A stretch of DNA of 64,000 nucleotides from Escherichia coli (GTDB lineage Bacteria; Pseudomonadota; Gammaproteobacteria; Enterobacterales; Enterobacteriaceae), in the NCBI RefSeq assembly GCF_003991155.1, contig NZ_CP031293.1. The stretch is one strand, 5' to 3'. Shown here one piece after another: positions 45,045 to 62,649 of this stretch (position 1 is the stretch's first letter; every line of letters starts with the position of its first letter). The notes beneath the pieces were generated by a model. It was not told the origin of the DNA. It made no database searches and saw only the letters and a list, made by a program, of their open reading frames with translations. A program made the position numbers and the translations under genes.

Positions 45045-45246
45045 ACCCTCAGGTGTTTCAAATAGCTGTTCTTTTTACGGAAATACTTATGAACTGGCTG
45101 GAATAAAGTGCAAGAAAATGTGACTACTATCTCATTTTTATCTGACATGATCTGTTGCCACTCGCTGCCAAATTGTCGCGCTAAAGCTGATTAGCACGGT
45201 GATATTTGATACTCTGGCAGACAGCAGAAACAACGGATTTAACCTA

Positions 45247-45295
45247 ATGATGAATGACGGTAAGCAACAATCTACCTTTTTGTTTCACGATTACG
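45247..45295 (+). pseudogene. sbcB: 5' stub (first 16 codons) of exonuclease I gene sbcB, interrupted by the prophage
   Basis: ATGATGAATGACGGTAAGCAACAATCTACCTTTTTGTTTCACGATTACG encodes MMNDGKQQSTFLFHDY. The sequence then diverges from the sbcB continuation I recall (..ETFGTHP..). Confidence 0.8.
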
Positions 45296-45814
45296 CGCAA
45301 CACCCCTGAGAACCGCCATAAACAAGGGTTTCATGATTTGTGATTTTAGTTTGGTACGCAATTTGGTACACAACACAATTTTCACTTCAGCGGGTAGTCA
45401 TCAAACTCACCATAACGCACTTCGTTGATGATGTACGTGATCACCAAAAATATCGCATCCGGACTAGTTCCATCTTCATGCGCAGGCATATGTTCATGCC
45501 TACCTGTCTGCAAACCAGTAATAAGCCATTACAGGGTGATAGTGATGCATCAACTACGTTAAGCGCAGAGAAATGATGCAGTGGTGGGCGGATTGGCTTG
45601 ATGAAAAGGTGGAGTGATCCACCTTAACCACTATCGAAGAGCACAAAGCCTTGCAATCCAGTGCAAAGCTTTGTGTGTCTCAGTTTTGTTTCATAGGTAA
45701 TCATGCGTTCACTACGATGCAAGAATCCATACCAAATTTTATTTAAAACTCACAAATACACTAGATAAAAACAATCCCGCAGTTTTCATGCGGGATATAC
45801 TGCATTTATTGCAA

Positions 45815-48292
45815 CTACATTGCCATTAATATAAACATAGCCAATTCGTCATAACGAATTCCGTAGCGTCCACCTGCTTTTTTTACAAGAATCATATTTC
45901 CTGTTTTATATTGAGAATAAATTTTCTCACCTGTATCAGGATCTGTGCTCTCTTCAGTTATCACCTCTTCATCCCATACGTCTGGCCATTCATCGTAACA
46001 CCAAAAAGCATATTGCTCAGGATTTAAACCATGCTTTCTAAGAATATCTCCTACGGTTTGAGCGCCAACTCCAAAATGATACCTTGATAACTCCAATCCT
46101 TTAAAATTAATCGACTCATTAAACCTGAACTTGCATATAATTCCCTTTATTTCCAGCGCAGCATCACGCTCTGCCTGAGTAATGTCATATATTGTTTTAA
46201 GTGTTTCATCTGATGTGCTTATAGTCCCGGATGCAGAATAAATCTGAGCCCATCTAAATGATGGTGCACCAAGAGATTTGCTGTTATCAATAATTGGTGA
46301 AAAATTACCTTTAATGGCAATATTTCCAGAGTCGCCGAATATATTAATAACTGTAGAGTCATCACCATGGTTTTTTACGCTTAAGTTTCTTGATAAAATA
46401 TTTATATCTTTGTTATACCCACTAACATTAATCCATCTTTTACCATCAATGTGATACCCGTAAATATTTCCGTTTGATTGTTCGTCAGGTGACTCTCTAA
46501 GAACAATAGCATCTACTCCAGACGACCATTGTATTTTTGTATCTGTAGGCCTCCAGTTCTTTATAATGAACGAACCATCAGTAAACTCCGTTTTTATTTG
46601 TCTATTGTCTACAAATGCGTCTCTTGGTTTAAACTCACTTGTGTTAACGCTGCTCTGAAGATCAGAAGCAAAAAATCTAAGATTTCCTGTATAACCCTGA
46701 GTCTCGGTCAGGTTATACGCAATCATAATTCCATTTTCAAACTCAGATGATGTTATTTTAACATCACGGCAATCACCAAAAATGCAATTTCCTTTATCAA
46801 ATGTTGTTTGAGCTTTGAATTTATCAAACCTTAAATTACGAACAGGGAAACCATCAACCTCTAATGCAAAGGATGCATGAAGGCCAAAGTATTCTGATGG
46901 CTTACCTGATGTATGATCAAGAGTAGTGGCTACTGTATTCTCAAAAACAGTCCCGCTAAAATTATTACCAATTGACGGAAACCTGATTACACTTATTGTA
47001 CCTTGTATTTCAGGAGAAATACCAGATAGTGTGATGTTAGTTCCATCAAATGATGCATCTGAATACGTATATACTGATTCACTGCCAGCAATTTTAAACT
47101 GTTTAACTGAAGTTATTCTCATCGACTTTTTATGTTTAAATGTCACTGAGCTTTCAGTATTACTTACAAGATCAATCTGAGGGCTATTCCTTATCGCGAT
47201 TCCTGACTGGACATAAACGTTATTAAAGTGCGTTTTTTCAGGATTTCCCTTCATTGAAAGGCTCCCGTCATTTTCTGTCAGTAGTAGTCCTTTTACCCTC
47301 CAATAGCCGACAATCTGTACGTTATCAATAACTGAATCACAGCTATCGTATACATGCAACCCTATATCCCAGTTATCACCCAATGAATAAGAATCAGGGT
47401 TATTGTATCCTTCAATACCATTTTTACTTACCATTATTCTCAGATTGCGTAACTGTGATGCCCTGTTGATACTAACAGCTACGCTCATGGCTTTTGGTGT
47501 AGCAGGAGTAACACCTACAGAATCTTCATTCGTAAACTCAGTGAACTTACAAGATATCCCTTCAACAATTTTAACCGGTCTTTCATTAGAGATGTTAAAA
47601 AAATATTTGTTTTTTTCTCCATCACCAGTAAATACAAGATGGGTTCCTTTACTCCAACTTTTTAATAATCTTTCAGGCGCTGGTCTATATGTATCCCAAT
47701 AATCAATGCCAGATCCAACCAGTGAACACCCCTCAGGAATGTTAATATTCTTCTTGATGATGCATATTCCTTCCGGAATTGTTATAACCGACCTTCCAGA
47801 GTTTAAAGCTTTAATAAAAGCATCTGAATCATCTGTTTCCCCATCTATTTTTGCTCCCCACCCTCTAACATCTCCACAATCTCTCCATCGTGCCATCTGC
47901 AACTCAGGATATTTTTTAGCGCCATCTGGATCTTCTAATTGCTGCCGTAGCTGATCGGGGTCATACTTCAGCACATTAGGAAAATAGAACTGCTGCGCAC
48001 CATATGCATCATAAACAGCCATAGAATGGCCTTGCACAGTTACAAACTTGGCTATTTGCCCGTTATATACCGGGTAACCAGCAGCGTTAATGATGATTGG
48101 TTGCGAAACAGGAACGTGAGAGCCATCTTCGTTCTCCACATAAACCTGAATCTGGTTTTCAGGATTTACAGGGTCAGTGTCAATTTTACCGATATAAATT
48201 TTGCCATTGGCAACCGCTTTAAAAGAACGTGCCATAGTGAAGAGTTGAGAAGGCATACTCACTACAACATTGGCATTTATCGAATCTGTCAT
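45815..48292 (-). CDS. Tailspike: P22 gp9-type head-binding N-domain, beta-helix depolymerase-like centre and C-terminal intramolecular-chaperone (peptidase S74-like) domain
   Basis: The N-terminus [64 protein letters not shown] matches P22 gp9. The centre has [30 protein letters not shown]. The C-terminus has [15 protein letters not shown]...[10 protein letters not shown]...[13 protein letters not shown]. Confidence 0.85.
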
Positions 48293-48350: not shown

Positions 48351-48373
48351 AAAAAACCCAGCCGAAGCTGGGT
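48351..48373 (-). terminator. Rho-independent terminator between ant and the tailspike gene
   Basis: The minus strand has ACCCAGC-TTCG-GCTGGGT followed by TTTTTT. Confidence 0.75.
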
Positions 48374-48391
48374 CGTTGCGTTGGTTATCTG

Positions 48392-49321
48392 TCAGTAGTT
48401 ATGTACTGAAGGAGGTAATTCTTTATTCTTAAGTCTCATCCATGCGGAAAGATTCGTTGGTCCGTCTGGCTCATTGATATCAACATCTCGTGTGTGATTG
48501 ATTAAAACGTCTCTCGCCATTCCGATAACATACGAGAACTCATGACCATAGTCGTAGCATCTGCCGGAATAGTTCGATTGAATTTGTTTTAATGCCGGAT
48601 ACAGTTCGCGGAATAACGCCTGTGAGCGGTTGGCATAATCCCATAACCATACAAGGCTGTTTGCTTCTTTTGCAGAAAGCTCGTTGGTTTTCTTCTCTTG
48701 TTTGCCAATGAACTCACCTTCAAGCGGAACGCGAGCAGCAAGTGACAGTGCTTCGGTAAACTGCTCATCACTGATTTCTTTGTACGAACATCCAAAATGG
48801 GATTTCAGTGACGACCACATGGTGATCATCGCCTTCGCCTGTTTTTCTTTTGGCAGAGACTGACCGCGACTCATGACGAGTTGTTTAATGGCTTCCTGCT
48901 GTTCAGTGGTGATTTTACCCGGCAACGCCTTTTTAGCTTTGCGTGGGTTAACTACATGGCCTTTAGTCCAGTACTCGTAGAGCACATCGTCACACTCTTC
49001 CTGATACTGGATTACCTTGTCGCGGATTTCAGGGCGGACTTTGTTTGGACTGATGGTTTGCAGCCAGCCAGCAAGTTTGCGAAGTGCCAAACAAATAATC
49101 TCACGGCACTGTTCATCACCAGGAAGCTGCATTGTGATTTTCACAATGGAGGTTTTAAACCGTTGCTTTATTTTCGTAAACTGTGAAGCCCAATCCATAC
49201 CCATACCTTCAACGATAGGTTTCATTGGGGTGTACGGCTCACCGTTGTGATTGACGACATAAAGCTCTGCGCCGTGGAATGGCACGTTGATAGTAGATAC
49301 TGCTGTTGCTATACTTTTCAT
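48392..49321 (-). CDS. ant: Antirepressor (Ant-like; P22_AR N-terminal type)
   Basis: The ORF is 309 aa, lies downstream of arc in the immI region, and contains [33 protein letters not shown]. Confidence 0.75.
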
Positions 49322-49387: not shown

Positions 49388-49534
49388 TCATTCTGGACAA
49401 ACAATTCCATCCTTAGCTACTGACTCCTTTAGTCTCCTCAATACCTCATTACTGAACGACCGATCATCCTTTTTCGCGGACTGCTCCAAAGCCTTTTCCA
49501 GCCATTCTGGCATCCTTAATGTCTTAACTTTCAT
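49388..49534 (-). CDS. arc: Arc-like ribbon-helix-helix repressor
   Basis: MKVKTLRMPEWLEKALEQSAKKDDRSFSNEVLRRLKESV is an RHH pattern. An AAGGAG RBS is present. The listed ORF start at 49600 is upstream of the likely start. Confidence 0.75.
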   Translation of the reverse strand: MKVKTLRMPEWLEKALEQSAKKDDRSFSNEVLRRLKESVAKDGIVCPE

Positions 49535-49580
49535 TTTTGCTCCTTTGCTCCTTTGTATGTGGTACGCATACATAGTATTT

Positions 49581-49609
49581 AGGTACGCATTGATAGTCAA
49601 TAGATACCT
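49581..49609. promoter_or_regulatory. Candidate immI operator: near-palindrome AGGTAcgcATTGA-TAG-TCAATagaTACCT in the arc/mnt divergent region
   Basis: It lies in the 112-bp divergent intergenic region (49535-49646). GGTACGCAT is also repeated at 49561 and 49582. Confidence 0.5.
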
Positions 49610-49646: not shown

Positions 49647-49898
49647 ATGTCTGATCGTAAGTACAAAAACCCTCAAGTGAATCTGAGGCTTCCTGTAGAG
49701 ATAAAGGAACGTCTTATTGAGCTGGCTGAGGCTAATTCTCGTTCATTAAATGCTGAGATGGTAGCAGCACTTGAGGCATGGACTGAAAAAAATAAACATA
49801 TTCAAGCACTAGATATTGCAACTATAGCATCGCGGTTGATAGAGCTTGAGCATGAGGTTGAGAAGTTAAAATGTATGCATGGCAACGGTGAAAAATGA
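49647..49898 (+). CDS. mnt: Mnt-like ribbon-helix-helix repressor
   Basis: NPQVNLRLPVEIKERLIELAEANSRSLNAEMVAALEAW has the same RHH pattern as P22 Mnt, followed by a C-terminal coiled tail. Confidence 0.75.
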   Translation: MSDRKYKNPQVNLRLPVEIKERLIELAEANSRSLNAEMVAALEAWTEKNKHIQALDIATIASRLIELEHEVEKLKCMHGNGEK

Positions 49899-50209
49899 AA
49901 CGCATCGCTATTTTGTTAATATTGTTCTTCTCTACAATAGTTTGCGCCAAACAAAAATCAGATAATGGCGATCTTAAAGGCCTGCAAGAACTCATGATAA
50001 CTTCGAAATTTGCTGGCATGTGCGGCACAATCAAACAAATGGCAACATTTCAAGAATCAACAAAAATGCCTGGCGGAGATGAGTTCTTACAGCGTTTTCT
50101 GACCACAGAGCAAGCAAGACTTGGAATGAATCCACAGGAGTTTCTTGAAGCATGCCAGAAGTCAATTTCAGCTTATACCAATTATTACAATCTAACTTCT
50201 GATAAATAA
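49895..50209 (+). CDS. Small secreted protein (moron, sieA-position)
   Basis: Its ATG overlaps the mnt stop (ATGA). It has the signal peptide MKRIAILLILFFSTIVCA. I see no recognisable homology. Confidence 0.6.
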   Translation: MKRIAILLILFFSTIVCAKQKSDNGDLKGLQELMITSKFAGMCGTIKQMATFQESTKMPGGDEFLQRFLTTEQARLGMNPQEFLEACQKSISAYTNYYNLTSDK

Positions 50210-50234: not shown

Positions 50235-50720
50235 ATGAAAAAATCACTATTAATTATCCCGCTTCTGCTGGCTGGATGCGCAAAAGTAAGTGACTACCAA
50301 GCAAGTTGCGAACAACGCTATCCAAAGCTTAGTGATATGGCTAATTGCCTTGATGCCAGCGTGAAGAACGACTCACGCATGGCATCAGCACCAACACCTA
50401 AGCTGTATGTCCTTGCTGCGAAGATGCTCGGGCAAGGTGTCGATGAAGGCAAGATAAGTGACGCACAGGCAAGACTTGAGCTTCAGAATCTTTATGTTCA
50501 ATTACAAAGCCAAGAACAAGCCCAACAAATAGCGCAAAGCCAAGCATTCCAGCAGGCTTTATTGAATTATCAGGCTGTAAACACAATGCAAGCGATCGAG
50601 CAAAAAGCGCGCCAGCCTGTTATAACTCAACCTTACCCAACACGCGTTGACACATATACAAACTGCAATTCAGGATTTGGAAACACCGTCACATGCAACA
50701 GTAGCAGCAACATTAGATAA
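50235..50720 (+). CDS. Lipoprotein, Gln-rich (moron, sieA-position)
   Basis: It has the lipobox LLAGC (Cys15) with Ala at +2. The centre is Q-rich (QSQEQAQQIAQSQAFQQALLNYQ). Confidence 0.65.
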   Translation: MKKSLLIIPLLLAGCAKVSDYQASCEQRYPKLSDMANCLDASVKNDSRMASAPTPKLYVLAAKMLGQGVDEGKISDAQARLELQNLYVQLQSQEQAQQIAQSQAFQQALLNYQAVNTMQAIEQKARQPVITQPYPTRVDTYTNCNSGFGNTVTCNSSSNIR

Positions 50721-50722
50721 AG

Positions 50723-52885
50723 CTATTCATATTCATTCATACCGCTTAACGAGGCGACAATACCAGCTCTCGACAAGCGATTGAATTCATCGCTACCAAT
50801 AGCATCGCGTATTGCTTTTACGGCGGCTTTATTTGCCATAAATCTGCGTTCCGCCGCCGCTAATGCTTCTTTACTTCCGCCAGCTCTTACTGCTTTCGTG
50901 GCTTCCTGAACTGCTTTCTCTATCGCATATCGGCCGCTACGCGTGGTGGCAATTTTAGATACAGCACCTTTTAACCCGGCGCCAACTAAAGCACCTGCGG
51001 CAGCGCCTGCAATGCCCCCTCCTGCTCCACCAACAATGGCACCTGATGTTGAGTTGGCAATTGCATTTAACACTGTTGATGTGACGTTGGATAAACCGGC
51101 ATCCAGATCGCGTAGTACATTGGCAGTTCTCCCTGTTCTTTCAATATACTGCTGAGGCTTCACTGCTGCTCTTGCAAGAGTGCCATATGCATCAGCAATT
51201 CTTCCGAGTTCTGAGGAATATCTGCTAATGGCTTTTACATTTTGTGGGGTAAGTATCCCTGCGATATGGTTAATTCCTGCTGCATCAGCTTTGCCACCAC
51301 GTACACCATGCGAGATAGCATCTTGCAACATTGATGATATAGCAGGAACACGCTCTGATTCTGGCAGCGCGCGGATCATAGAATGGAACCCAGCAGGACC
51401 ATTAAGACCTTTAGCTGACGATGATTGAAGGGATTTTACTCCATTCGTAATCAGTGCATCTGTTGCCAAATCACGCCCGAAAACAGACTCTGCACTCTCT
51501 TGTGCTGATAACCTCGCTTTAGACAGATCATTAGCTTTCTGCCAGTCATCAAGAAATCCGCCGTTTTCCGCCATTGTGCGCATATCATCAGTAATTGCCC
51601 GGCGTATTTCCCCTGCTCTCCTTGCCGCATTTGCCTCTCCGCTACGCTTATATTTTTGCTCCGCATCAGCAAATTTCGCTCTCCATGCTTTCATGCCATC
51701 AAATGTTACCCCACCTTGATTGTTTGCCTGAACAAACTGTTTCATTTCAGGAGTAAGCGGTATGCCAGCAGATCGCTCTGCCTGAATAACGGCATTACCA
51801 TTTAGCATTCTTGCTTTTTGATTTGGCATTGTTGACCGCACGTCATCCCATGCCGCGCGCTCGGCATCCTTCATCTGATCAAGATTTTGAAGAATCCTTT
51901 GTTTTATAGCCGCACTTTTTTCTGATGCCGTTCCAGATGCGGCCCCAAATTCATCAAGGTTTCGACTTAACTTTGATGATATTTCGTTAAATGCTGCCTG
52001 ATGGGCGTCCTGAACAATTCCTGGTGTTGATGCCAATGCGCCTTCGGCTTGTGCAATTCCACGACTTCCAGATCGCATTCCTGGTGTTAATGCGTTTATA
52101 TCAATTCCAGCAGACTCAGCCGCTTTTGCTACATCTTCGGACACATTAGCGGCCTGACTGGCAATTGACTGACGCCCAGCACCTGACTTTGCCATCCTGG
52201 AAACATCATTAGCAGAATTCAGTGCTGCACCACCAAGAGCCTGTGAAACCCTTGGCGCAATAACGCGCCCGACACCTGAAAGAACGCCTTGAGCACCAAT
52301 ATTGATACCACCGTTAATGGCAGCATTTTGTGCAAAGTCGCCCTCCTGATTTGCAGCATCAGCAAGAGAACCTGCAATCATGTTTCCTGCGGAACCGATA
52401 TCTCCAGCGAGCTTTGCTGGCGCTCCAGCAGCTTTTGCCGCTGTGCCAATTGGCAGGAGATACCCACCAATTGTTTCACCGGCTTGCGCATAAGGGTCTG
52501 TCGGTCGATCGACTGGACGATAGACATCATCCAAAACCTTTGGGCCACCAAGCCCCTGGCTGATTGCATTAATCAGACTTGCGCCACCCTGCAATACGTC
52601 AAATGGTATGTTTACCAGACCACGACCAGCCTGTTCTGCAATTTGCCCTGCACTTTGACCACCTGTGAGCCAATCACCAGCTTGTTGCATCAATGATGGT
52701 TCTTCTTTCTGCTGCTGTGGCGGAGGGTATGCTGCATAAAACTGATCTCTTGCTTCAGCCCATTTGTCACCAGCCTTAGGGGCAACAACCTCATCAAAAT
52801 ATTGCGCTTGAGCCTGTGCTTTCTGTTCTTCAGTTAACGCCTGATACTGTGGAGAAGCGATAACATCTTTCCATGCTTTAGCCAT
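50723..52885 (-). CDS. Ejection (internal virion) protein, gp16 position
   Basis: The ORF is 720 aa, Ala/Gly-rich, and the last of the three ejection genes. Confidence 0.75.
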
Positions 52886-54225
52886 TAATCACCCCATAAA
52901 GACGAGAAACCGGAATTATTGCTGTCGCTTCCTGATTTTCGCTCACTAACATATGTGTCATAACCTGATGAACTATATCCCATTGATTCAGCCTCCCTTG
53001 CTGCAACCTTTTGAAATACAGAATATTGCGATCGGATTTCAGATAACTGTTTTCTGACGACCTCTTCAGGCTGTGTTATATCGAGTTTCGCGATCAGGTT
53101 TTCCAGTTTTTGGCCTTCAGCATTGGAGAGGCTACCCATACCTCGCATAGTCTGCACGTTCTGGACAAACGCACCCGACTTTAATTCTTCTATCGCATTA
53201 CGGTTTGCAAGCCCTTCAGCACTTGTGAAGCCATCTATATTTCTTCCTTCGAAGCGACCGATACCTTCAAGCTCCTTCTTACCAAGCAAAGAATCAATTT
53301 TCTCTATCCCTCGCTCACCAGTAATCAACGCATTGTTGTAATTATTGTTGCCATCAAGCCATCTCTTAGCCTGAGACATTCTGGCTGACGTTGCAGCTTT
53401 ACCGGTTAGAGGATCAATTCCCGTCGCTGCTATCTGTGAGTTAAGAGACAAAACATCCATATCCTGAAGTTGTCCTGCTCTTTCAAGGGCCGCCTGTGAC
53501 TGCTTAAACACATACTTGTCGTGATTCAGTCTTGCCATTTGAGCCTTATAGGAAAGATCCTGCCCCCTAATAGCCCTCGCATTCGTCATGTCATTATTGC
53601 GAATGGTTTCGTTAATTCTTTGCTGTTCCTGCTGGCGACCAACCATCTTGTCCTGAACATTGAAGTAATCAATCGGACCAAGAGCAGCCATTCCGAGGTG
53701 ATCAACAAACTCACCAAATCCTGAAGGATTCTGCTGATACATCTGAGCAACGTTGTTAGGGTCAACGCCGACGCGCGCCAGTTCCTTGGCGTTGTTTTGC
53801 AGCCATGATTGCATTGCTTCTGGAGACGAGGCCGCAAGGCGTGCGCCAGCTGCTAAGGTGCCGATAGAATTACGCTGCTCTTCATCAATGAATCCCATGC
53901 CTTTACGAACGGATTCAATCTGGTCTGGATATTGAGTAGCCAACTGACGCAAAGCACCGCGATCACCAGACGCATAAGCATTAGCGTATGCCTGCTGAAA
54001 TTCTTTCTGCCGCTGAGCCTGCTTTTCCTGCTGAAACACCCCCGCAATACCTGAAAGTCCTTGCAAAGCAGTCAGCCCAACATTGTTAGCGCCTGAACGC
54101 TCAATATCATTGTTCTGCCTGATAAGCTGAAGCGTATTGCCGATGTCATTTACGCTCGGAGCGTTTGAGTTGACGCCGCCGATACCAGCCAACAATCCGC
54201 CATTTGATCCTTGCCAAGTAGCCAT
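52885..54225 (-). CDS. Ejection protein, gp20 position
   Basis: The ORF is 446 aa and is assigned by gene order. Confidence 0.75.
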
Positions 54226-54234
54226 GATTACCCC

Positions 54235-54927
54235 TTAAAACAACGAACCAAGCAATCCGATACCAGCACCAATGCCAGCGCCCCAAGGTGTTGATGTTCC
54301 CAAAAGGCTGGCAAGACCTGCACCGGCAATCGCACCGGACGTTCCGCCGCTAATTGCTGTCTGAAGACTTGATGGTTTATTGGCATTAGCAGCGGCAAGT
54401 GCTGCGCTTTGCTGTGCAATGCTGCTCATGTTGTTGGCGTACGTCTGCCCGGCGTTTGCCTGACCTTGCAGAGCACCAAGCCCAACGTTTGCCAGATTGT
54501 TGTAATTGCTCATCTGGTTTGATAACCAAGACTGACCGAGAGTCGGCGCGATCGTAGCCAGTTGATTGCTTGTGGCTGTCGAACCAAGTCCGCCAGTCGC
54601 CTCCGCAGCAGCAAGACTCTGGTAACGAGCCTGACCTGCAAGGTCTTTATACTGCTGAGAATTGTAATACTGATTAAGTGCCTTCCCCTGACCTTCTAAA
54701 CTGGAAAGATTCTGAAGCTGGTTAACATACTGCTCCGCAAGCGGCGTGAACGGAGCAAGGTTTTTCATGATCGTCTGCCACTGCTGATTTTGCAGGTCTG
54801 CGGCATACTTCTGGGCTTCTGCTGCATACTTTGCGCTTTTATCAGAACTGCCACCTTTCCCGCCTTTTTCAGGGCAATAAGGTTCCTCGCCGCGCAGTTT
54901 TCTGCCCAGCTTAAATGCATATAACAT
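54235..54927 (-). CDS. Ejection protein, gp7-like
   Basis: MLYAFKLGRKLRGEEPYCPEKGGKGGSSDKSAKYAAEAQKYAADLQ resembles P22 gp7. Confidence 0.8.
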   Translation of the reverse strand: MLYAFKLGRKLRGEEPYCPEKGGKGGSSDKSAKYAAEAQKYAADLQNQQWQTIMKNLAPFTPLAEQYVNQLQNLSSLEGQGKALNQYYNSQQYKDLAGQARYQSLAAAEATGGLGSTATSNQLATIAPTLGQSWLSNQMSNYNNLANVGLGALQGQANAGQTYANNMSSIAQQSAALAAANANKPSSLQTAISGGTSGAIAGAGLASLLGTSTPWGAGIGAGIGLLGSLF

Positions 54928-54929
54928 GG

Positions 54930-55385
54930 CTATCTCCCGTGATTCAGGAAGTCGATTAGTTCTTCGCGTGTGGCGCTGTAAAACGTCACGTCATCCACGC
55001 CTTTGAAGTATTTCTTGATGGTTCCTACACGCTTAAGGCCAATCATTGCGCAGTACATCTGACCGTGGCGGAATTTGCGCGCAGCGAACGATGTGACACA
55101 CTGAACAGTGGTGTTAGTCAGAATGTATCGCCAGAACGCCAGCCCGATTTCCTTGCTGAAGCCGCGAACCTCTGGCAGGTACATGGCGTGGCAATCGAAT
55201 GTCAGCGGCTGAATCTCCTGATAGTAAACAATGCCGCCGAACTGCCCGTGCACGTTAACTTCAAAGTAACGGCAATCAGGTTTGTAGCCGTATTCATCAC
55301 CGTTATTGCTCCCGGCGATAATGTCAGGGTGATTTCCGACTGCTTCTATCAGGTCGATGTTTCGCGTTGGTTTGAATGTAATCAT
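54930..55385 (-). CDS. gp14-position virion assembly protein
   Basis: The ORF is 151 aa and lies between the needle gene and gp7. Confidence 0.65.
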   Translation of the reverse strand: MITFKPTRNIDLIEAVGNHPDIIAGSNNGDEYGYKPDCRYFEVNVHGQFGGIVYYQEIQPLTFDCHAMYLPEVRGFSKEIGLAFWRYILTNTTVQCVTSFAARKFRHGQMYCAMIGLKRVGTIKKYFKGVDDVTFYSATREELIDFLNHGR

Positions 55386-56086
55386 CAGTCAATCAGCCCA
55401 TGTAATCTAAGTGCTGTTTCAAGCGCCAGAATACGCTGCCGCGCCTGCTGCAAACCTGTAGCGAGAGCCGCGACTTCGGATTGCGTGTACGTAGTGCCGA
55501 CAGTGTATGACTGGTTAGCGTTGAATGAGCCAAGAAGTGGCGTACCTGTGGCTGCAGTCCATCCGGTCTGCCTTGCTCCAACGACCTGAATTCCATCAAC
55601 TGAATATGATGTTTTTACATCCAGCGGTGACGCAAGAGACTGCGATTCGGTTACGGTTTTCGATACGTAATCACTCTTAATGCCAGAGACATCGTTTTCT
55701 ACGTCATTCAGTCTTTGGTCAACAGTGACCAGATGCGCCTGAATATCGATAACCTCATCCAGCAAGTAATCAACATCGCTACGCAGTACGACTATCTTCC
55801 CTTCGGCAGTTGTTAACCTGACCTCAAGGAGATTTATCGCTTTTGTGTTTGCGGTGATTCTTGCGTCGTGATCAGCCAGTTCGACATCCTGTTCATCGTT
55901 TTTCACCTGAGCATCGTAAGCGCCCTGACCAGCCTGATTTGCCTTCCCGGCAATTGCGCCGACATCAGCCCCCTGATTAATGACATACAGCAGGTAAGAC
56001 TGGCTGAAGATATTGCGTGGAAGGATTGATGTATCGAGCCGCGTCGCCTGCACAATAACAGGAGTGTTGAGATTCGAATCCGCCAT
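55385..56086 (-). CDS. Tail needle (gp26-like trimeric coiled coil)
   Basis: [36 protein letters not shown]...[18 protein letters not shown]...ALRLHGLID is close to P22 gp26. Confidence 0.9.
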
Positions 56087-57504
56087 TACTCAATCCTTAT
56101 CTGAGCGCCAGAAAGAGTTACAGGTGACTTCGTGATAACGCGCAATTTGAAGCCGACATTTTTCCTGATGCGCCCTACTCTCTTCCACAAAACACGCTTG
56201 TCGTAAACGAACGGTTCATTCTGCTCAATCATCTGCTCACGACCGTAATTGATGCCATCAGTGGTTGCCGAGAGGAACAGGCGGTCGGCGTACTGAGCGA
56301 CACCCGTCGATGATTCCACCTCCAGATCAAAGCATCTGGCGTTATCCGCTTTGAACAACGGAGTAAACAGCAGGTGTTCCTGTTGCTTGTCGTACTGGCT
56401 GCTGATATCGAATTGCAATTTCCCGGTCACGGACTCCAGCTTATCGCCGCACGTTATCTGATTGCCTTCGTAAATGAAGTCGATAGCGCGGTACACATCG
56501 TCATACAGGCCTGTTTTCAGTACACACCATTGCGGACCATTGGCGCTTGAAGATGCGTCGTACACGAGAACATGGCGCGGAAGATGGATAATCAGCAGCT
56601 CATGCGCATCAAATCGCAGAGACTCCATCACACCATCAGCCAGTTCATCAGCAGTGTAGGAGCGGAGGATTTTCTCAATGCTCGCGCTGGCGATTGGTGA
56701 TACCTGACCGGAGCCGATGATATATACAGACGGCGCACCTGTTGCCGGATTGCTGATGAACGCATAAGAATCAGCGAATGGCGTTTTGCAGTAAGTCCCG
56801 GCGATGCCTTTTTGCACCATCAGTGATGGCTGTGCGACATACAAAGCGGCACCAACGGTAGTTGATCCTGTCAGGGAGAAATATTCAATAGTCGATGAAC
56901 CAAAGCATACGATGAAGTCTCGCCATGTTCCGATGCCGATGATGCCGTCAGGCTGCGATTCTGCGCGATATTGTGCGCTGTAGCGGTCAGGGTGCGATTC
57001 GTCTTCAAGGTCAGTGATAAACCATGAATCAGTACCGTCTTTTGACCACGCATAACGCCCACGCAAGCGCGTAATGTCGCGAACAGAACCTAACTCATAC
57101 TGCGTGAATCCGCTGTCCGTAGGCCAGTTTGAGACGGTTTTAACCGTGCCATCATAGCGATACTCGACCAGTTGACCATTAACGCCTACCGCCTGTGATG
57201 TCCGACCATGCGCCATTGATACGCGACCACTTCCGGCAACATCACCGACTTCACTTTCGCCTTTGTACAGCTTGCCACCACACACACGATAAACAGCATT
57301 CTGCGCCATGTTGTACTCGACACCGCGAGATACACCGTTCACATCAGAACGTTTTGCAATGCCCGGGAATGAGCGAAGATATCCGCTGCTGTTCAGGATT
57401 TCTTTGGGTGTAGCCAACATATTCACTGGCAGATAGTCGATATAGTCGGCATTTCGGAAGTCTTTGCCGACACCTTTCATAAGCGGAAGTTGCTGAATCG
57501 GCAT
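56086..57504 (-). CDS. Tail hub / head-completion protein gp10-like
   Basis: The ORF is 472 aa, the same length and position as P22 gp10. Confidence 0.85.
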
Positions 57505-58005
57505 TTATTCGCCCCCGTTATCGCAAGGTTCCTTCCGGTGGAAGTAATTCCAACCATTCCACTTCGCCAACTGGTTACCGCTACCAACAGGCATACGGTT
57601 TGGATAACCGGACTTACATTTAGCGGCTTTTGCTCTGTCCATTGCAGACAGTTTGACGAGTCGCTCTTTCCCGTATCTGGCAGTGGTTATAAGTTTTGCA
57701 GGCGCTTCCAGCGCATAATCCGGTGCAATGCGGCAGGCAAGGTTGAAAATAACAGCATTGATAGCGTTATTTGATAAACCGTGCTCATCGCCCGGATCCG
57801 GAGCGACATCTGCATCAGCAAAAATGTAGCCAACGTTGATCCCAGGTGACGCATCACCGCCAAGCCATTCAGCCATCATCATTTCAAGGTCGTTGACGCC
57901 GTCTTCCATAGACTGCGGTTCGACATCAGTTAACGTGGCATTTGATGCCACACCGAGCTTACGTAATGCCGCAAGGACTAAATCACCCTTCGTTGTCAGG
58001 TTCAT
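57505..58005 (-). CDS. Tail adaptor gp4-like
   Basis: The likely start gives [47 protein letters not shown], which is close to P22 gp4 (166 aa). Confidence 0.9.
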
Positions 58006-58219
58006 CTGATGCCGCCTTAGGTTTTCGACCAGGCTTTTTACGCTGCTTTTCTTCTGGCTCTGGCTCTTGCTTTGCAACATCCTTCAAAAGGTCATCAGGA
58101 TGTGAAAACCAGCCAGCATCCAGATATTCCTGAAGCTCTTCGGCTTTCACGATTTCAAAGTCGTAGCCAACGCCTTTCCACTTCTTCATGTCGCCATGAC
58201 GAAAGATCATGTGTGTCAT
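57983..58219 (-). CDS. Small hypothetical protein between coat and gp4
   Basis: [24 protein letters not shown]... has a charged, low-complexity tail. It overlaps the gp4 start by ~23 nt. Confidence 0.4.
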
Positions 58220-58263
58220 GCTTGTCTCCAGATAAAAACGGGAGCCGAAGCTCCCTCTGGTTA

Positions 58264-59559
58264 TCACGCGGTCTGGTTAGGCAGACCAACACCAATTGCC
58301 TCTGGCCGTACAGCACATGCTGAATACCACACAGCAATACGGCACTTACCAGACAGAGTATTGATATCACCCTGCGTTGCGAAGATGCCGTTAACACCAA
58401 TACCAGGAATGCTGAAGGAAGACGTTTTCATGCCAGCAAACAGTTCATGGGTTACCGGAATCGGCTGAGACAGCAGGCGGATTGAGTCATCAGCCCAGAA
58501 CACGTTAGCGGTGGTTGTTGCCACGTTCAGAACGTTTACCGTAGTGGAATCAGCAAGAGAGGTGTTTACGTTAGCGTAAGCCTTCTCTTCTTTTGTCAGT
58601 GACGCGTCATCCAGTGCAATCGGCTTCGGCGTGATTTCGATGTGAGTACTATCGATCACACGGGTGATTGAGAAAGTTGCATCATCAGTCAGCACGTTCT
58701 TCGCCATCTGAGACAGGAATTTCACACCAGTGAAACTGATTTTGTCGCCGCGCTTAAATCCGGTGGTGGAGGATACAGTCACCGTTGCAACACGGTTGTC
58801 GACGTTCTCTTTGTTACCATCGGTATCAAGGGTGTATGCCTGCGGCTTAAACTTCTGCGCGCCAGAAACAGTTACACCAGTAGCGGTTGACTTGGTAACT
58901 GCCGGAAGTTTCGGTGAGCGAAGAATTTCATCAAAGCCAGCAATCTGACGCTGAATAGTACCGTTGTGATACGCATCTTCAGGAACGCGCCCGAAGATGT
59001 CACCATCTACAAGATTGCGGCCTGCTTTGCGGTAATCGTCAGGGTTCAGGAAGTAACTGATACCCATGTCGCGGTTGAGTTCGCGGGAGAACATCAGTCG
59101 CTCTGCATCAGACACAAAATCCCAGCCAGACAGGCCAGTAGATGGACCAATTGCGCGGGTATCGTGAACAACAAGTGAGCCCATTTCGGTTGCCTGTTTG
59201 GCAATTGCTGACTCAATGTTATTCGCCAGTTTTTTGGCGGATGCCTGGATGCGGCGACGGTAAGAACGCTCATCACGCAGGTCATCTGCACGAAGCTCGA
59301 AGAAATCGTTATCCGGATCGCCCATGTTGCACTTCACGGAGAGTTCCAGAATCCCGGTTGCGTTGCCAGTTAAATCCCAGCCAGTCTGGGTTGGCGCTTC
59401 CTGCTCAACAGGCATCCACACGGTGTTGCTTGAACGCTGCATGGATTCTGCCGGAGGGGTGTATTTTGTCACTTTGGACGCCATTGGCGTCAGGTTCTGG
59501 ACGGTTTCGATGATTTCATCCAGAGCATACGTGACCAGTTGACCTTCATTTAATGCCAT
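58264..59559 (-). CDS. Major capsid (coat) protein gp5-like (HK97 fold with I-domain)
   Basis: [27 protein letters not shown]...GVGLPNQTA is 431 aa and near-collinear with P22 coat. Confidence 0.95.
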
Positions 59560-60470
59560 TATCGAATTCCTTTATTCAGTTGCGCCTTGAGCTTGCGGTA
59601 TGTCTCCACATCACCTTTGTTTGCTGCCGCTTCCATCTGCTTTTCAATCGCAGAGATATTTGCAGCAACAGCGTGTCCCTGAATGGGTTCATCAGGTAAC
59701 GGGGCTTCTGAAACAGGCTTTGCTCGAGGCTTGAGAGTTAAACGTTCTGACAGTCGAGTGAGTTCAATCAGCGCGGATTGCCCGTCCATCGCCAGCAACT
59801 GGCGTGTTTTCTCAGGATTAGCACCAAGGTGATACATGAGAGCGGCGGATTTCTCCGGGAAGAGGCGCATGATGTCGGCACCGACTGCTGGCGGCACCAG
59901 TTGCATGAATGCATCCTCTTTCTCCTGATAGTCAGGGATATTGAGTTTTTCCGCTGCGTCGTAGTGCTTACGGGCTGCCTCGACGTATTGCGCTGATTGC
60001 TGGGTGAACTCCTGAGTTTTGCGCCCCTGCTCGGCGACAGCCCGGCTTCGTGCGTCCATAGCCTTGATCTGCCATTCACTGTTTGCCTGCTGGAAGGCAG
60101 CCAGTGCGCGGCTCTGGTCATAGTCGTACTTAGCCAGTGCATCTTCGGAAAGATAATCGTTAGGGTCTGGTTGTTTTGGTAACTCAGGGTTCACCCGCAG
60201 GTGCTCCGGCAACTCTCCACGCTTAACCGCTTCCATCTGCTGCTCAAGCTCACGCTGGCGTTTGCGTTCGATGCGGCGACGGGCAAATTCAGCATTAGTT
60301 GCCGGGTCTTGTTTTGGTTTCTCATCGTCTTTCAGGACAATCTCGAAGCCTTCTTCCTGACCTGCGTTGTCGTTGGCATTATCGACAACTAAGCCATCAG
60401 CAGATGCCGCTGCATGATTGCCGGGCAGGGTTAATTCTTCAGAAGCCTGAATGTCGGTGGTTTGGTCCAT
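59559..60470 (-). CDS. Scaffolding protein gp8-like
   Basis: The ORF is 303 aa, charged and helical, and lies between portal and coat. Confidence 0.85.
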
Positions 60471-60483
60471 GATTAACTCTCTC

Positions 60484-62649
60484 TTATTGAGGTGTCTCGG
60501 CTACTCCGCCGGAGGGGATTTGAACTTGACGCATAAGATTCGCGAAATCCATGCGTTGTGAATGAGTCTGGTCTGCATCTTTAAGAAGCAGCTCAGCGTT
60601 AGCACGAGCATCTTTGCTGCGCTGTTGCTGGAATTGACCTACGAGCTTGAGGTACTCACGCAGTTCTGCCTGCTTGTCTAGGTCCATATTGTTGAAGATT
60701 TCCGCAATCTTCGCGGCGTTGAGTTGGTTTTGGGCTTCAACCTTGGCGGCTTCAACCTGAATCTGCGCCTGTTGGTTCTCTGCCTTGAGCAATTCAGCCT
60801 GACCTTGCAGAAGGATACCCTGCGCCTGAATTTGCTCTGCTGATGGCTGCTGCGGCTGCTGTTGAGCCTGCTGTACCATCTCCATCTCTTCAGGTGTTTC
60901 TGGTTTCTTCAGCCCCATCATCACCAGTTGCTTGTTCGCGTACTCTCGCATCATCTCGACGCCTTTACCGTCAAGCAGCGTGAAGTATTGCAGCATCAGC
61001 ATCTGGAACTCTGGAGTACCTTGTGGAACCTTGGTGAGTAACTCCTGAATCTCTGCGCGGTTCTGTTCCTTCATACTCTGGAAGGATGGTCCAACGTCTG
61101 TATAGCACTCATAGCGACCGCGAATGTCGTTGAGTGTGACCACATTGCCGGACTGGTAATCTACAACTTGCGCGTAGAGTTGAACGTCTTTCTCGCTTCC
61201 GTCTTCAAGAGTCAGCGTTACATGGCGAGGAACGTCATAAATATCGTTGACCATTGAGGCATAAATCTCGCCATCACGTCGCATTGCGGTAGCCAGGTTA
61301 TCCTGAAACACGTATGTCTCAAGGTCTGCCCGCATGTTCAGTTGATTGACGGTATCGAAAGCGACCTGACCATTTGCCGCCTGCGCATCAACGCCAAGAC
61401 TAGCCACCTCTTTCACTGCGTTGGTGGCTGCCTCAAGCATGTAAGCGTTGGCTTGCGGCACTTCAGGGTTTTCCATGTAGGAGATTGGACCAATCGGCAG
61501 GTCGTTACCGTTTTCATCGGTCCTGTTCTGCAGATAGTACGGATAGTCATCATTTCCACCGTACATGTATTCGTAGCCTTCGATTTGCTCAGGGAAGAAG
61601 GTCGGTTTCTTCTTCGGTGAACGAGCAACAATATCGGCGTTGAATGACATGATCATGTTACGAAGGCGCTGACCGTCTTTCGTCAGCCTTACCACTCCTT
61701 CGTAGCACTCCTTGTCACCAGCGAATGACCATTCGCCATACACTGGAACGATTGGAATATGCTCTCCGGCTATCTTCTCGCGGTCTTTCAGTATCTGCGT
61801 GCAGGTGATGATCGACTTATACACACGCCGACGCTTGACCTTACGCTCTGCCACCTTAATGAATCCACGATTAGCCAGGTCGTCGATGACGTCTTTGATA
61901 TCCTGCTGGTAATAGCTGACCGGCTCACCTGTCAGCGGGTCGCGGTAGATGAAGACTTTCTCTTTCTTCTCTTCGACCTCGTAATACTCAGCGACGTAGA
62001 CGACATCATTCGATACCCACGGAAACAGCCATGTATCGTTCGGATTCTGGAAAGATGGCAAGGTGTCAGGATCAATACCGTAATCCTCTGCGAACTCTTT
62101 CCAGCCATTGCGTGACAAAGCGTTAATCACCGTGCAGTGCTTAGCGTCGCTCTTATCCATCTGCTTGCTATTGGCGTCCCATATGACGTGTGAGCAGGCT
62201 TCATGGATTGGAAGGCGTCGGATTACCTGATTGTTGCTTGTTGGATCGTTGTCTTCGTACTGCGTGACCAGACGCCATGCACCAACGCCGGACTCTATCT
62301 GCTCACGAACGCCAACGTTAACGGCAATTTTTGCCGTGTTATGGCGCATATCAGTACGATACATCCCCATCAACACATCGGCTGCATCAGGATTAGCACC
62401 GTCTTTTGGTCGGAAGAGAACGTCGATAGGGTTCCGGCGCATCTCTGCGACCAACTTCCTGACCACCGGGCGGACAACATCGAATTGTCCGCGATATTGC
62501 AGGGTGGTGTAGTTTGATAGCCAGTCATCCCATTGCGACACTCGGCTAAAATACAGGTCATTTGTCGCCTCGGTTCTGGCTTCATCGCTCGCCATCCAGT
62601 CTGCGTCAAACTTACACAGAATGGAATTGAGTCTGTTTTCGTCGGCCAT
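60484..62649 (-). CDS. Portal protein gp1-like
   Basis: The ORF is 721 aa with a Q-rich C-terminal barrel region ([18 protein letters not shown]). Confidence 0.9.

Follow-up and report, generated by a model that had tools for sequence, protein, structure and literature searches.

A mosaic tailspike of a P22-like Escherichia coli prophage whose beta-helix module probably recognizes the group 2 K14 capsule

The tailspike gene and its three blocks

The DNA analyzed here is a stretch of 64,000 nucleotides (the window) from Escherichia coli contig NZ_CP031293.1 (RefSeq assembly GCF_003991155.1), and the gene under study is an intact ATG-start open reading frame (ORF) of 825 amino acids (aa) plus stop, present in the ORF list at 45815..48292 on the minus strand, as are all tailspike features described below. 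The protein matches PHROG 1171 ('tail spike protein') with an E value of 2e-203; the whole gene is found at 98–99% identity in 19 complete E. coli genomes, and 19 near-identical RefSeq copies carry the annotation 'phage tailspike protein'. A P22-like set of virion genes and the upstream immI/ant region surround it, and from this sequence context the product is identified as a tailspike, and the gene as the counterpart of gene 9 in a temperate podovirus prophage of the P22 type that adjoins dacD. The gene forms the right end of the prophage, of which ~18 kb falls inside the window.

The N-terminal residues form a head-binding, or particle-attachment, domain (aa 1–115; 47948..48292) that matches Pfam Head_binding (PF09008) over aa 4–114 with an E value of 1.2e-65 and a score of 219 bits (cut-off, 24). 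Sequence matches in the PDB to Sf6 gp14 (7sg7) and P22 gp9 (1lkt, 2vky) are limited to aa 1–119, and tblastn finds 94% identity to HK620 gp9 over aa 1–125, ~90% to phages Gally and 683R2 over aa 1–164, and 87% to the CUS-3 endosialidase tailspike over the same 164 residues. The P22 gp9-like start of the protein proposed in a first-pass annotation made from the letters alone is thus confirmed, as is its statement that the ~550 residues that follow are unlike P22 gp9, since the P22, Sf6 and HK620 matches end at aa ~119–125. Those three tailspikes are 51–94% identical to the present one in the head-binding domain and share its helix fold class and virion position; unlike it, they cleave O antigens and have no S74 chaperone, and their helices are unrelated to it in sequence. 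A neck or linker (aa 116–165; 47798..47947) is held in common with tailspikes that carry other catalytic modules and is 64–78% identical in homologues with other N-termini; it looks like a common recombination linker. In PDB entry 9vvr_A (843 aa), a tail spike whose recent structure comprises 18 chains, the neck motif and the chaperone correspond to those of this protein and the helix does not.

The cap and first rungs of the beta-helix (aa 142–197; 47702..47869), which recombine together with the N-terminal block, just reach the Pfam cut-off of 27 bits for Pect-lyase_RHGA_epim (PF12708), with a score of 27.1, and the DG.TDD..A...A motif of pectate-lyase-type helices that had been noticed in the first reading lies inside this match, at aa 150–175. 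An AlphaFold2 model built with 52 homologues has a right-handed parallel beta-helix from aa 140 to ~660, with a predicted local distance difference test score (pLDDT) mostly above 90. Its best structural neighbours are phage capsule and O-antigen depolymerases and AlgE4-type enzymes; the nearest solved beta-helix enzymes (GVE2 ORF18, 7chu; AlgE4, 2pyg; Klebsiella Depo32, 7vz3; CBA120 TSP2, 5w6p; K5 lyase, 2x3h) differ from it in being only 9–16% identical and in acting on other substrates, and are no guide to the linkage cleaved here. In the alignment of the 52 homologues D309, E352, E478, D510 and E519 are invariant, together with Trp, Arg and His residues, and D306, E340, D342 and D480 are nearly so; all nine acidic residues are candidates for substrate binding or catalysis. 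Glyco_hydro_28 gives no match in the Pfam scan and the NCBIfam scan is empty: GH28 is a name that NCBI gives to some homologues, and polygalacturonases are only remote fold neighbours at 12–15% identity. The sialidase families PF12217, PF12218 and PF12195 are likewise absent from the Pfam scan of the protein, which is not an endosialidase; only its stalk and chaperone resemble one. Among homologues the helix region is most divergent at aa 561–660 (11–63% identity, vs 31–81% over aa 196–560), and this segment may be a specificity-determining subdomain.

Ahead of the predicted cleavage site lies a stalk (aa 661–693; 46214..46312) that is predicted to form a triple beta-helix in the trimer. Pfam End_tail_spike matches weakly at aa 654–693 (20.1 bits against a cut-off of 25), and the endosialidase stalk of 4hiz matches aa 655–693 with an E value of 0.013; the monomer model has low confidence here, with pLDDT below 50 at aa 671–691. 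The last 132 aa of the protein (aa 694–825; 45818..46213; 15.3 kDa; pLDDT 82–95) constitute a putative intramolecular chaperone of the peptidase S74 type. As a single sequence this domain matches Klebsiella Kp7 gp51 (7y5s, 2e-15), T5 pb1 (4uw8, 6e-12) and endoNF (3gw6, 8e-10); a profile of the 52 homologues gives 3e-39 for 3gw6, 3e-36 for 3gud (GA-1) and 9e-30 for 4uw8, 6eu4 is a further PDB match of the domain, and Foldseek aligns the modelled domain with 3gw6 at an E value of 5e-9. The first-pass assignment of the C terminus to S74 therefore stands at the level of the family, where 48 of the 52 homologues match PF13884 (E ≤ 0.001) and the catalytic dyad is conserved, and is weaker at the level of the single sequence, where the score of 21.4 bits falls just short of the cut-off (22); the length of ~150 aa proposed there is corrected to 132.

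In pairwise alignments S694 pairs with the residue that was changed from Ser to Ala in the uncleavable constructs 3gw6 (S911A) and 4uw8, and S694, D695 and K699 are nearly invariant among the 52 homologues. Ser694 (codon 46211..46213) is thus the predicted nucleophile, with the scissile bond at T693/S694, and Lys699 (codon 46196..46198), which aligns with K916 of endoNF, the predicted general base of a Ser-Lys dyad. The mechanism of this dyad and the definition of S74 self-cleavage have been described (PMC3828593), and the five-residue spacing of S911 and K916 in endoNF is found again in S694 and K699. Self-cleavage at this bond is predicted to yield a 76.7-kDa mature chain and a freed domain of 15.3 kDa. 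The chaperones of endoNF (MEROPS S74), T5 pb1 and GA-1 gp12 are homologous to this one and have the same Ser-Lys spacing; they differ in that identity is just ~20–25%, in that the present copy falls slightly under the Pfam cut-off, and in that its cleavage is a prediction.

The three-part design of the first-pass annotation (a P22-type attachment module, an unrelated beta-helix and an S74-type chaperone) is upheld, every peptide string that it quotes is present in the translation, and comparison with other prophages indicates where its parts were joined. As judged from alignments, the tailspike is a mosaic of three blocks: adaptor, neck and helix cap (aa 1–194), specificity module (aa 195 to ~688) and chaperone (aa ~689–825). 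The middle block (46229..47710), an exchangeable receptor-binding or depolymerase module that comprises the right-handed parallel beta-helix and the start of the C-terminal stalk, recurs in P0006, a fibre of T7-like E. coli prophages (918 aa; annotated 'tail fiber domain-containing protein'; in a cluster of 654 members), with 99–100% amino acid identity over aa 196–660 and 98.5% nucleotide identity, whereas outside the helix identity drops to 11–20% before aa 166 and to 31–33% in the chaperone. DNA identity to the T7-like fibre breaks sharply at two points, codon ~195 (GIDYWD) and codon ~688, the latter lying a few codons short of the serine at the cleavage site. Because the junctions fall at these two codons, the mobile unit would be the mature specificity module, with adaptor, neck and cap contributed by one partner and the chaperone by another. 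The G+C content, which is ~49% in the flanks and in the whole window, 42% in the first 195 codons and 35.7% in the helix module, changes in steps along the gene that fit a mosaic origin. Together these comparisons indicate an exchange of the specificity module between P22-like and T7-like prophages, through recombination at domain borders.

One such copy, in strain ECONIH2 (NZ_CP014667.1, 2698624–2701098), belongs to a T7-like prophage beside yfgI that also encodes a T7 gp14-family core protein and an internal protein with an SLT domain; RefSeq flags this copy as a pseudogene 'missing C-terminus'. The P0006-type fibre thus shares with the tailspike its specificity module and its K14-type hosts (described below) and differs in its N-terminal adaptor, its chaperone allele and its phage backbone. 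Temperate T7-like elements with capsule spikes, of which ECONIH2 is an example, deserve attention in their own right.

Related helices are paired with five N-terminal adaptors (P22 head-binding, TSP1/gp66-type, T7 tail-fibre, tail-collar and a head-tail connector fusion), and homologues that are 30–80% identical occur in phages and prophages of E. coli, Citrobacter, Yersinia and Rahnella. The closest match in the phage collection, at 80% identity, is Phi05_1387 B, an unverified and unannotated record classified as Uetakevirus and deposited as a phage. No characterized full-length tailspike was found: the NCBIfam scan is empty, the phage collection offers nothing above 80% identity, and a literature search on DIJ06P1 returned nothing. 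The description of the module as novel holds to that extent, and over the helix no PDB structure is more than 16% identical; the module is, however, found elsewhere, in 28 complete genomes and in the 654-member cluster. A distant blastn search of complete E. coli genomes returned ~3 diverged copies, too few to ask whether homologues track other K types.

Carriers of the module and their capsule locus

The distribution of the module was examined in a collection of 5,426 complete E. coli genomes, using chimeric queries in which the module DNA was joined to a shorter probe and the matching places in each genome were counted. The module (aa 195 to ~688) is present in 28 genomes at 98.4–99.9% identity. 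With a kpsE probe from CFT073, all 28 carriers gain one place, which marks them as group 2 kps genomes, as against ~31% of genomes overall. With a 1.15-kb probe of a 760-aa gene of kps region 2, 27 of the 28 carriers are positive compared with 80 of the 5,398 other genomes (Fisher p = 7e-47), the region being present in 2% of genomes; carriage of the module is thus restricted, with a single exception, to hosts with this kps type. The K2 capsule was also tried as a target, since ECONIH2 is an O6 strain with pks, and was rejected: a CFT073 K2 region 2 probe matches 0 of the 28 carriers and was kept as a negative control.

The carriers' kps locus has a standard three-gene region 2 that agrees with K14_8 and with the length of the K14 cluster in the kTYPr catalogue, where the K14-specific genes are K14_7 and K14_8, the latter 761 aa long with a GT-A domain at N-terminal residues 2–227, and where the reference cluster is 13,918 bp (PMC13171606). 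The same work assigns K14 to the 3-deoxy-D-manno-oct-2-ulosonic acid (Kdo)-containing types, in whose loci GT99/GT107-like Kdo-transferase domains are encoded, and counts it as one of the four K types that are most frequent and most diverse in sequence type (PMC13171606). Provided that the capsule is the receptor, it is highly probable from these gene features that the capsule locus of the carriers is K14. K52, plausible for O15 strains, was set aside: kTYPr numbers K52 genes to at least 13 and kpsM/T rearrangements are reported for it, whereas the carriers' locus is a standard three-gene one. K14 is reportedly a polymer of an N-acetylgalactosamine–Kdo disaccharide with O-acylation (said to have been described in 1983 by Jann et al. 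for O6:K14:H31), a structure that would fit the epimerase, two-domain transferase and acetyltransferase of the locus as well as the O6 carriers; because the locus encodes an acetyltransferase, K14 is taken to be O-acetylated.

The carriers belong to at least five O types (O83 in three, O15 in three, O6 in six, O5 in one and none of these in 15). Their prophages occupy at least three chromosomal sites (dacD-sbcB, a dsdC-side site and yfgI) and have two phage backbones; the prophages of O15_8X and E50, for example, lie at a site that differs from the dacD one. Since O types, integration sites and backbones all vary in this way, the module appears to have been acquired several times. The kps locus at pheV/yghD is unlinked to the dacD, dsdC-side and yfgI sites. 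Four genomes (Combat2C1, OZ040490, E57 and ECE170) have two copies of the module each, presumably on two prophages per cell.

Predicted receptor and alternative explanations

The closest known system in both function and architecture is the tailspike of CUS-3 (siaK1), a K1-specific P22-like prophage of E. coli RS218, whose record annotates the endosialidase activity as experimentally shown with a K1 host. Both tailspikes have a P22-type head-binding domain (within the 87% identity over aa 1–164 noted above), a capsule module and a C-terminal S74 chaperone, and both genes occupy the slot directly after ant; the target of CUS-3 is a group 2 capsule and not an O antigen, the same class that is predicted here. 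Unlike the present protein, CUS-3 has a sialidase as its catalytic part, without similarity to the pectate-lyase-type helix (homologues with the CUS-3 architecture carry PF12217, PF12218 and PF12195), its substrate is polysialic acid instead of the predicted K14, and neuO follows its tailspike gene, whereas none is found here. By analogy, the tailspike is most likely the K14 counterpart, in design, of the K1-specific endosialidase tailspike of CUS-3.

Taken together, the domain structure and the carrier genomes argue, with a probability that we put at about three in four, that this P22-like prophage gene encodes a tailspike, built as a three-block mosaic, that binds and probably depolymerizes the group 2 K14 capsule and not an O antigen. 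The choice between O antigen and capsule, which the first-pass annotation had left open, thus receives a provisional answer: group 2 capsule, most likely K14. In the mechanism we propose, chains would trimerize with the help of the chaperone, as inferred from the family; each chain would then cut itself at T693/S694 by means of Ser694 and Lys699, freeing the 15-kDa chaperone and leaving a 77-kDa mature subunit. Residues 1–115 would plug the trimer onto the tail hub, by homology with P22, Sf6 and HK620, and the central beta-helix (aa ~140–660) would bind K14 chains and probably cleave them internally, so that the virion could reach the outer membrane. Host range would then be set by the K type.

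Several points weigh against this assignment. The receptor is deduced from carriage of the module, and lysogens are non-independent samples; clonality, evident among the Hebei isolates E20, E50, E57 and E67 and among the CREC/CRKP isolates, inflates the p value. Presence or absence of kps was read indirectly, from 'places_in_record' counts, and the K14 label reflects agreement in gene lengths, domain content and cluster length with the supplement of the kTYPr paper rather than sequence identity to the K14 reference strain. The kps locus of the present host lies outside the 64-kb window, which thus does not give its capsule type. Alone among the carriers, GF43 (NZ_CP172127.1) is positive for kpsE yet gives no match with the K14-type region 2; it may have switched capsule after becoming a lysogen, its locus may be disrupted, or its K type may be a related one. 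On the protein side, the Peptidase_S74 match of this copy (aa 694–756) lies 0.6 bit under the Pfam cut-off, the choice of catalytic residues is a guess based on conservation, and a hydrolase, a lyase, an esterase and a binding-only protein are not distinguishable by sequence.

The head-binding domain and the phage backbone are typical of O-antigen-specific P22-like phages, and the beta-helix fold is common among O-antigen tailspikes such as CBA120 TSP2/3; these features speak for an O-antigen-specific endoglycosidase like those of P22, Sf6 and HK620, with O serotype setting the host range. Such an enzyme is nevertheless very unlikely, because near-identical modules occur across O83, O15, O6, O5 and at least one further O type, and because only 3 of 36 O83 genomes and 3 of ~100 O15 genomes carry one. 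Moreover, the 770-bp gap between the tailspike stop and dacD (45045–45814) contains no gtr, acetyltransferase or other O-antigen conversion gene, unlike P22, where gtrABC is found. The association with K14 might instead follow from common descent or ecology of the strains, with another glycan that they share, such as colanic acid, enterobacterial common antigen, lipopolysaccharide core or the conserved capsule linker, as the true target. In favour of this, several carriers are plainly clonal, aa 2–369 match PHROG 8280 ('colanic acid degradation'), and enterobacterial common antigen is made, and colanic acid can be made, by all E. coli. A species-wide target, however, would not predict 27 of 28 carriers against a background of 2%; the K2 control is at zero, and the module was gained several times in hosts where kps is unlinked to the prophage sites; this explanation is regarded as improbable, if slightly less so than an O-antigen receptor.

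Two further alternatives concern function and not the receptor. The protein could recognize K14 without glycosidase activity, as a binding-only adhesin or a deacetylating esterase, and both the O-acetylation of K14 and the lack of an established glycoside hydrolase or polysaccharide lyase family signature (the NCBIfam scan being empty) speak for this. Known phage deacetylase spikes use SGNH domains, whereas the fold here is a pectate-lyase-type helix, 40 of the 52 homologues match Pect-lyase_RHGA_epim, and the invariant acidic, Trp, Arg and His residues are as in depolymerases; we judge this the least improbable of the four alternatives, yet still an unlikely one. The other possibility is a defective prophage in which the gene survives as a relic without yielding a functional spike; this would accord with the frequency of prophage decay, with the pseudogene annotation of the ECONIH2 copy and with the fact that the window shows just ~18 kb of the prophage. 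It is as hard to credit as an O-antigen receptor, given that the ORF is intact and 98–99% identical across the 19 genomes, that the virion genes beside it, so far as the window shows them, are all full-length and match PHROG families strongly, and that the 80%-identical Phi05_1387 B was deposited as a phage.

If the preferred assignment of a K14-depolymerizing tailspike is followed further, the K14 structure described above would make hydrolysis more likely than elimination at the cleaved linkage. It is a tentative, and on balance doubtful, extension that aa 195–688 represent the first sequence-defined K14 depolymerase, perhaps an endo-Kdo-hydrolase on a pectate-lyase-type helix that attacks the beta-ketosidic Kdo linkage (an attractive possibility), and that the family constitutes a class acting on Kdo-containing capsules. 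According to a 2025 paper, phage depolymerases are known for the E. coli K types K1, K3, K5, K7, K12, K20, K26, K28, K30, K31, K32, K36, K38, K39, K42 and K95 (PMC12488582); K14 is absent from this list, and a non-exhaustive literature search found no characterized K14 depolymerase. The object itself is of an ordinary kind (a modular tailspike depolymerase with an autochaperone), although its specificity is probably new and its module borders are unusually clean. K14 ranks among the five most frequent capsules of E. coli from bloodstream infections in Europe, has the second-highest estimated invasive potential (odds ratio 8.9) and is present in CC131 and CC69, both multidrug-resistant lineages (PMC13171598). 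If the K14 assignment is correct, the tailspike offers a K14-specific binding or degrading protein for capsule typing, serum sensitization and the engineering of phage or pyocin host range, and, should it prove a K14 depolymerase, the module would be directly usable as a typing or decapsulating reagent. The prediction, if it holds, also provides a clean natural case in which a receptor module and, separately, a folding chaperone have been swapped between podovirus lineages at domain borders, and a cheap route to receptor assignment for orphan tailspikes through co-occurring surface-polysaccharide loci.

Neighbouring genes of the prophage and other features of the window

Directly upstream of the tailspike, as in the immI region of P22, lies the gene for the anti-repressor Ant (48392..49321, minus strand; PHROG 245, E value 3.5e-97), and further P22-like virion genes, for DNA transfer or ejection proteins, tail needle, gp10-like head closure protein, coat and portal, extend over 50723..62649 on the minus strand. 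A pattern scan gives two terminator-like hairpins on the minus strand, one at 45774..45796, 19 nucleotides 3' of the tailspike stop, and one at 48355..48374, between ant and the tailspike start; both are consensus matches only. The dacD-sbcB intergenic region of the non-lysogen ECONIH2 is just ~208 bp, and the segment between the tailspike stop and dacD is therefore likely to be mostly phage DNA containing attR.

Beside ant, two small divergent genes of the ribbon-helix-helix (Arc/Mnt-like) type at 49388–49600 (minus strand) and 49647–49898 (plus strand) have an immI-like layout as in P22. The second matches PHROG 795 ('partition protein ATPase'), a label that looks wrong for an Arc/Mnt-like protein of 83 aa. 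Two plus-strand ORFs (49895–50209 and 50235–50720) are located between these genes and that of the DNA-transfer protein; one encodes 104 aa with a signal-peptide-like N-terminus and the other encodes 161 aa matching PHROG 6067, a family without an assigned function. They occupy the position of sieA on the P22 map and may be morons expressed in the lysogen, conceivably for superinfection exclusion. Elsewhere in the window, two tRNA-Asn genes, at 17266–17341 (minus strand) and 19090–19165 (plus strand), lie in opposed orientation ~1.7 kb apart; asn tRNA genes are classic integration sites of islands.

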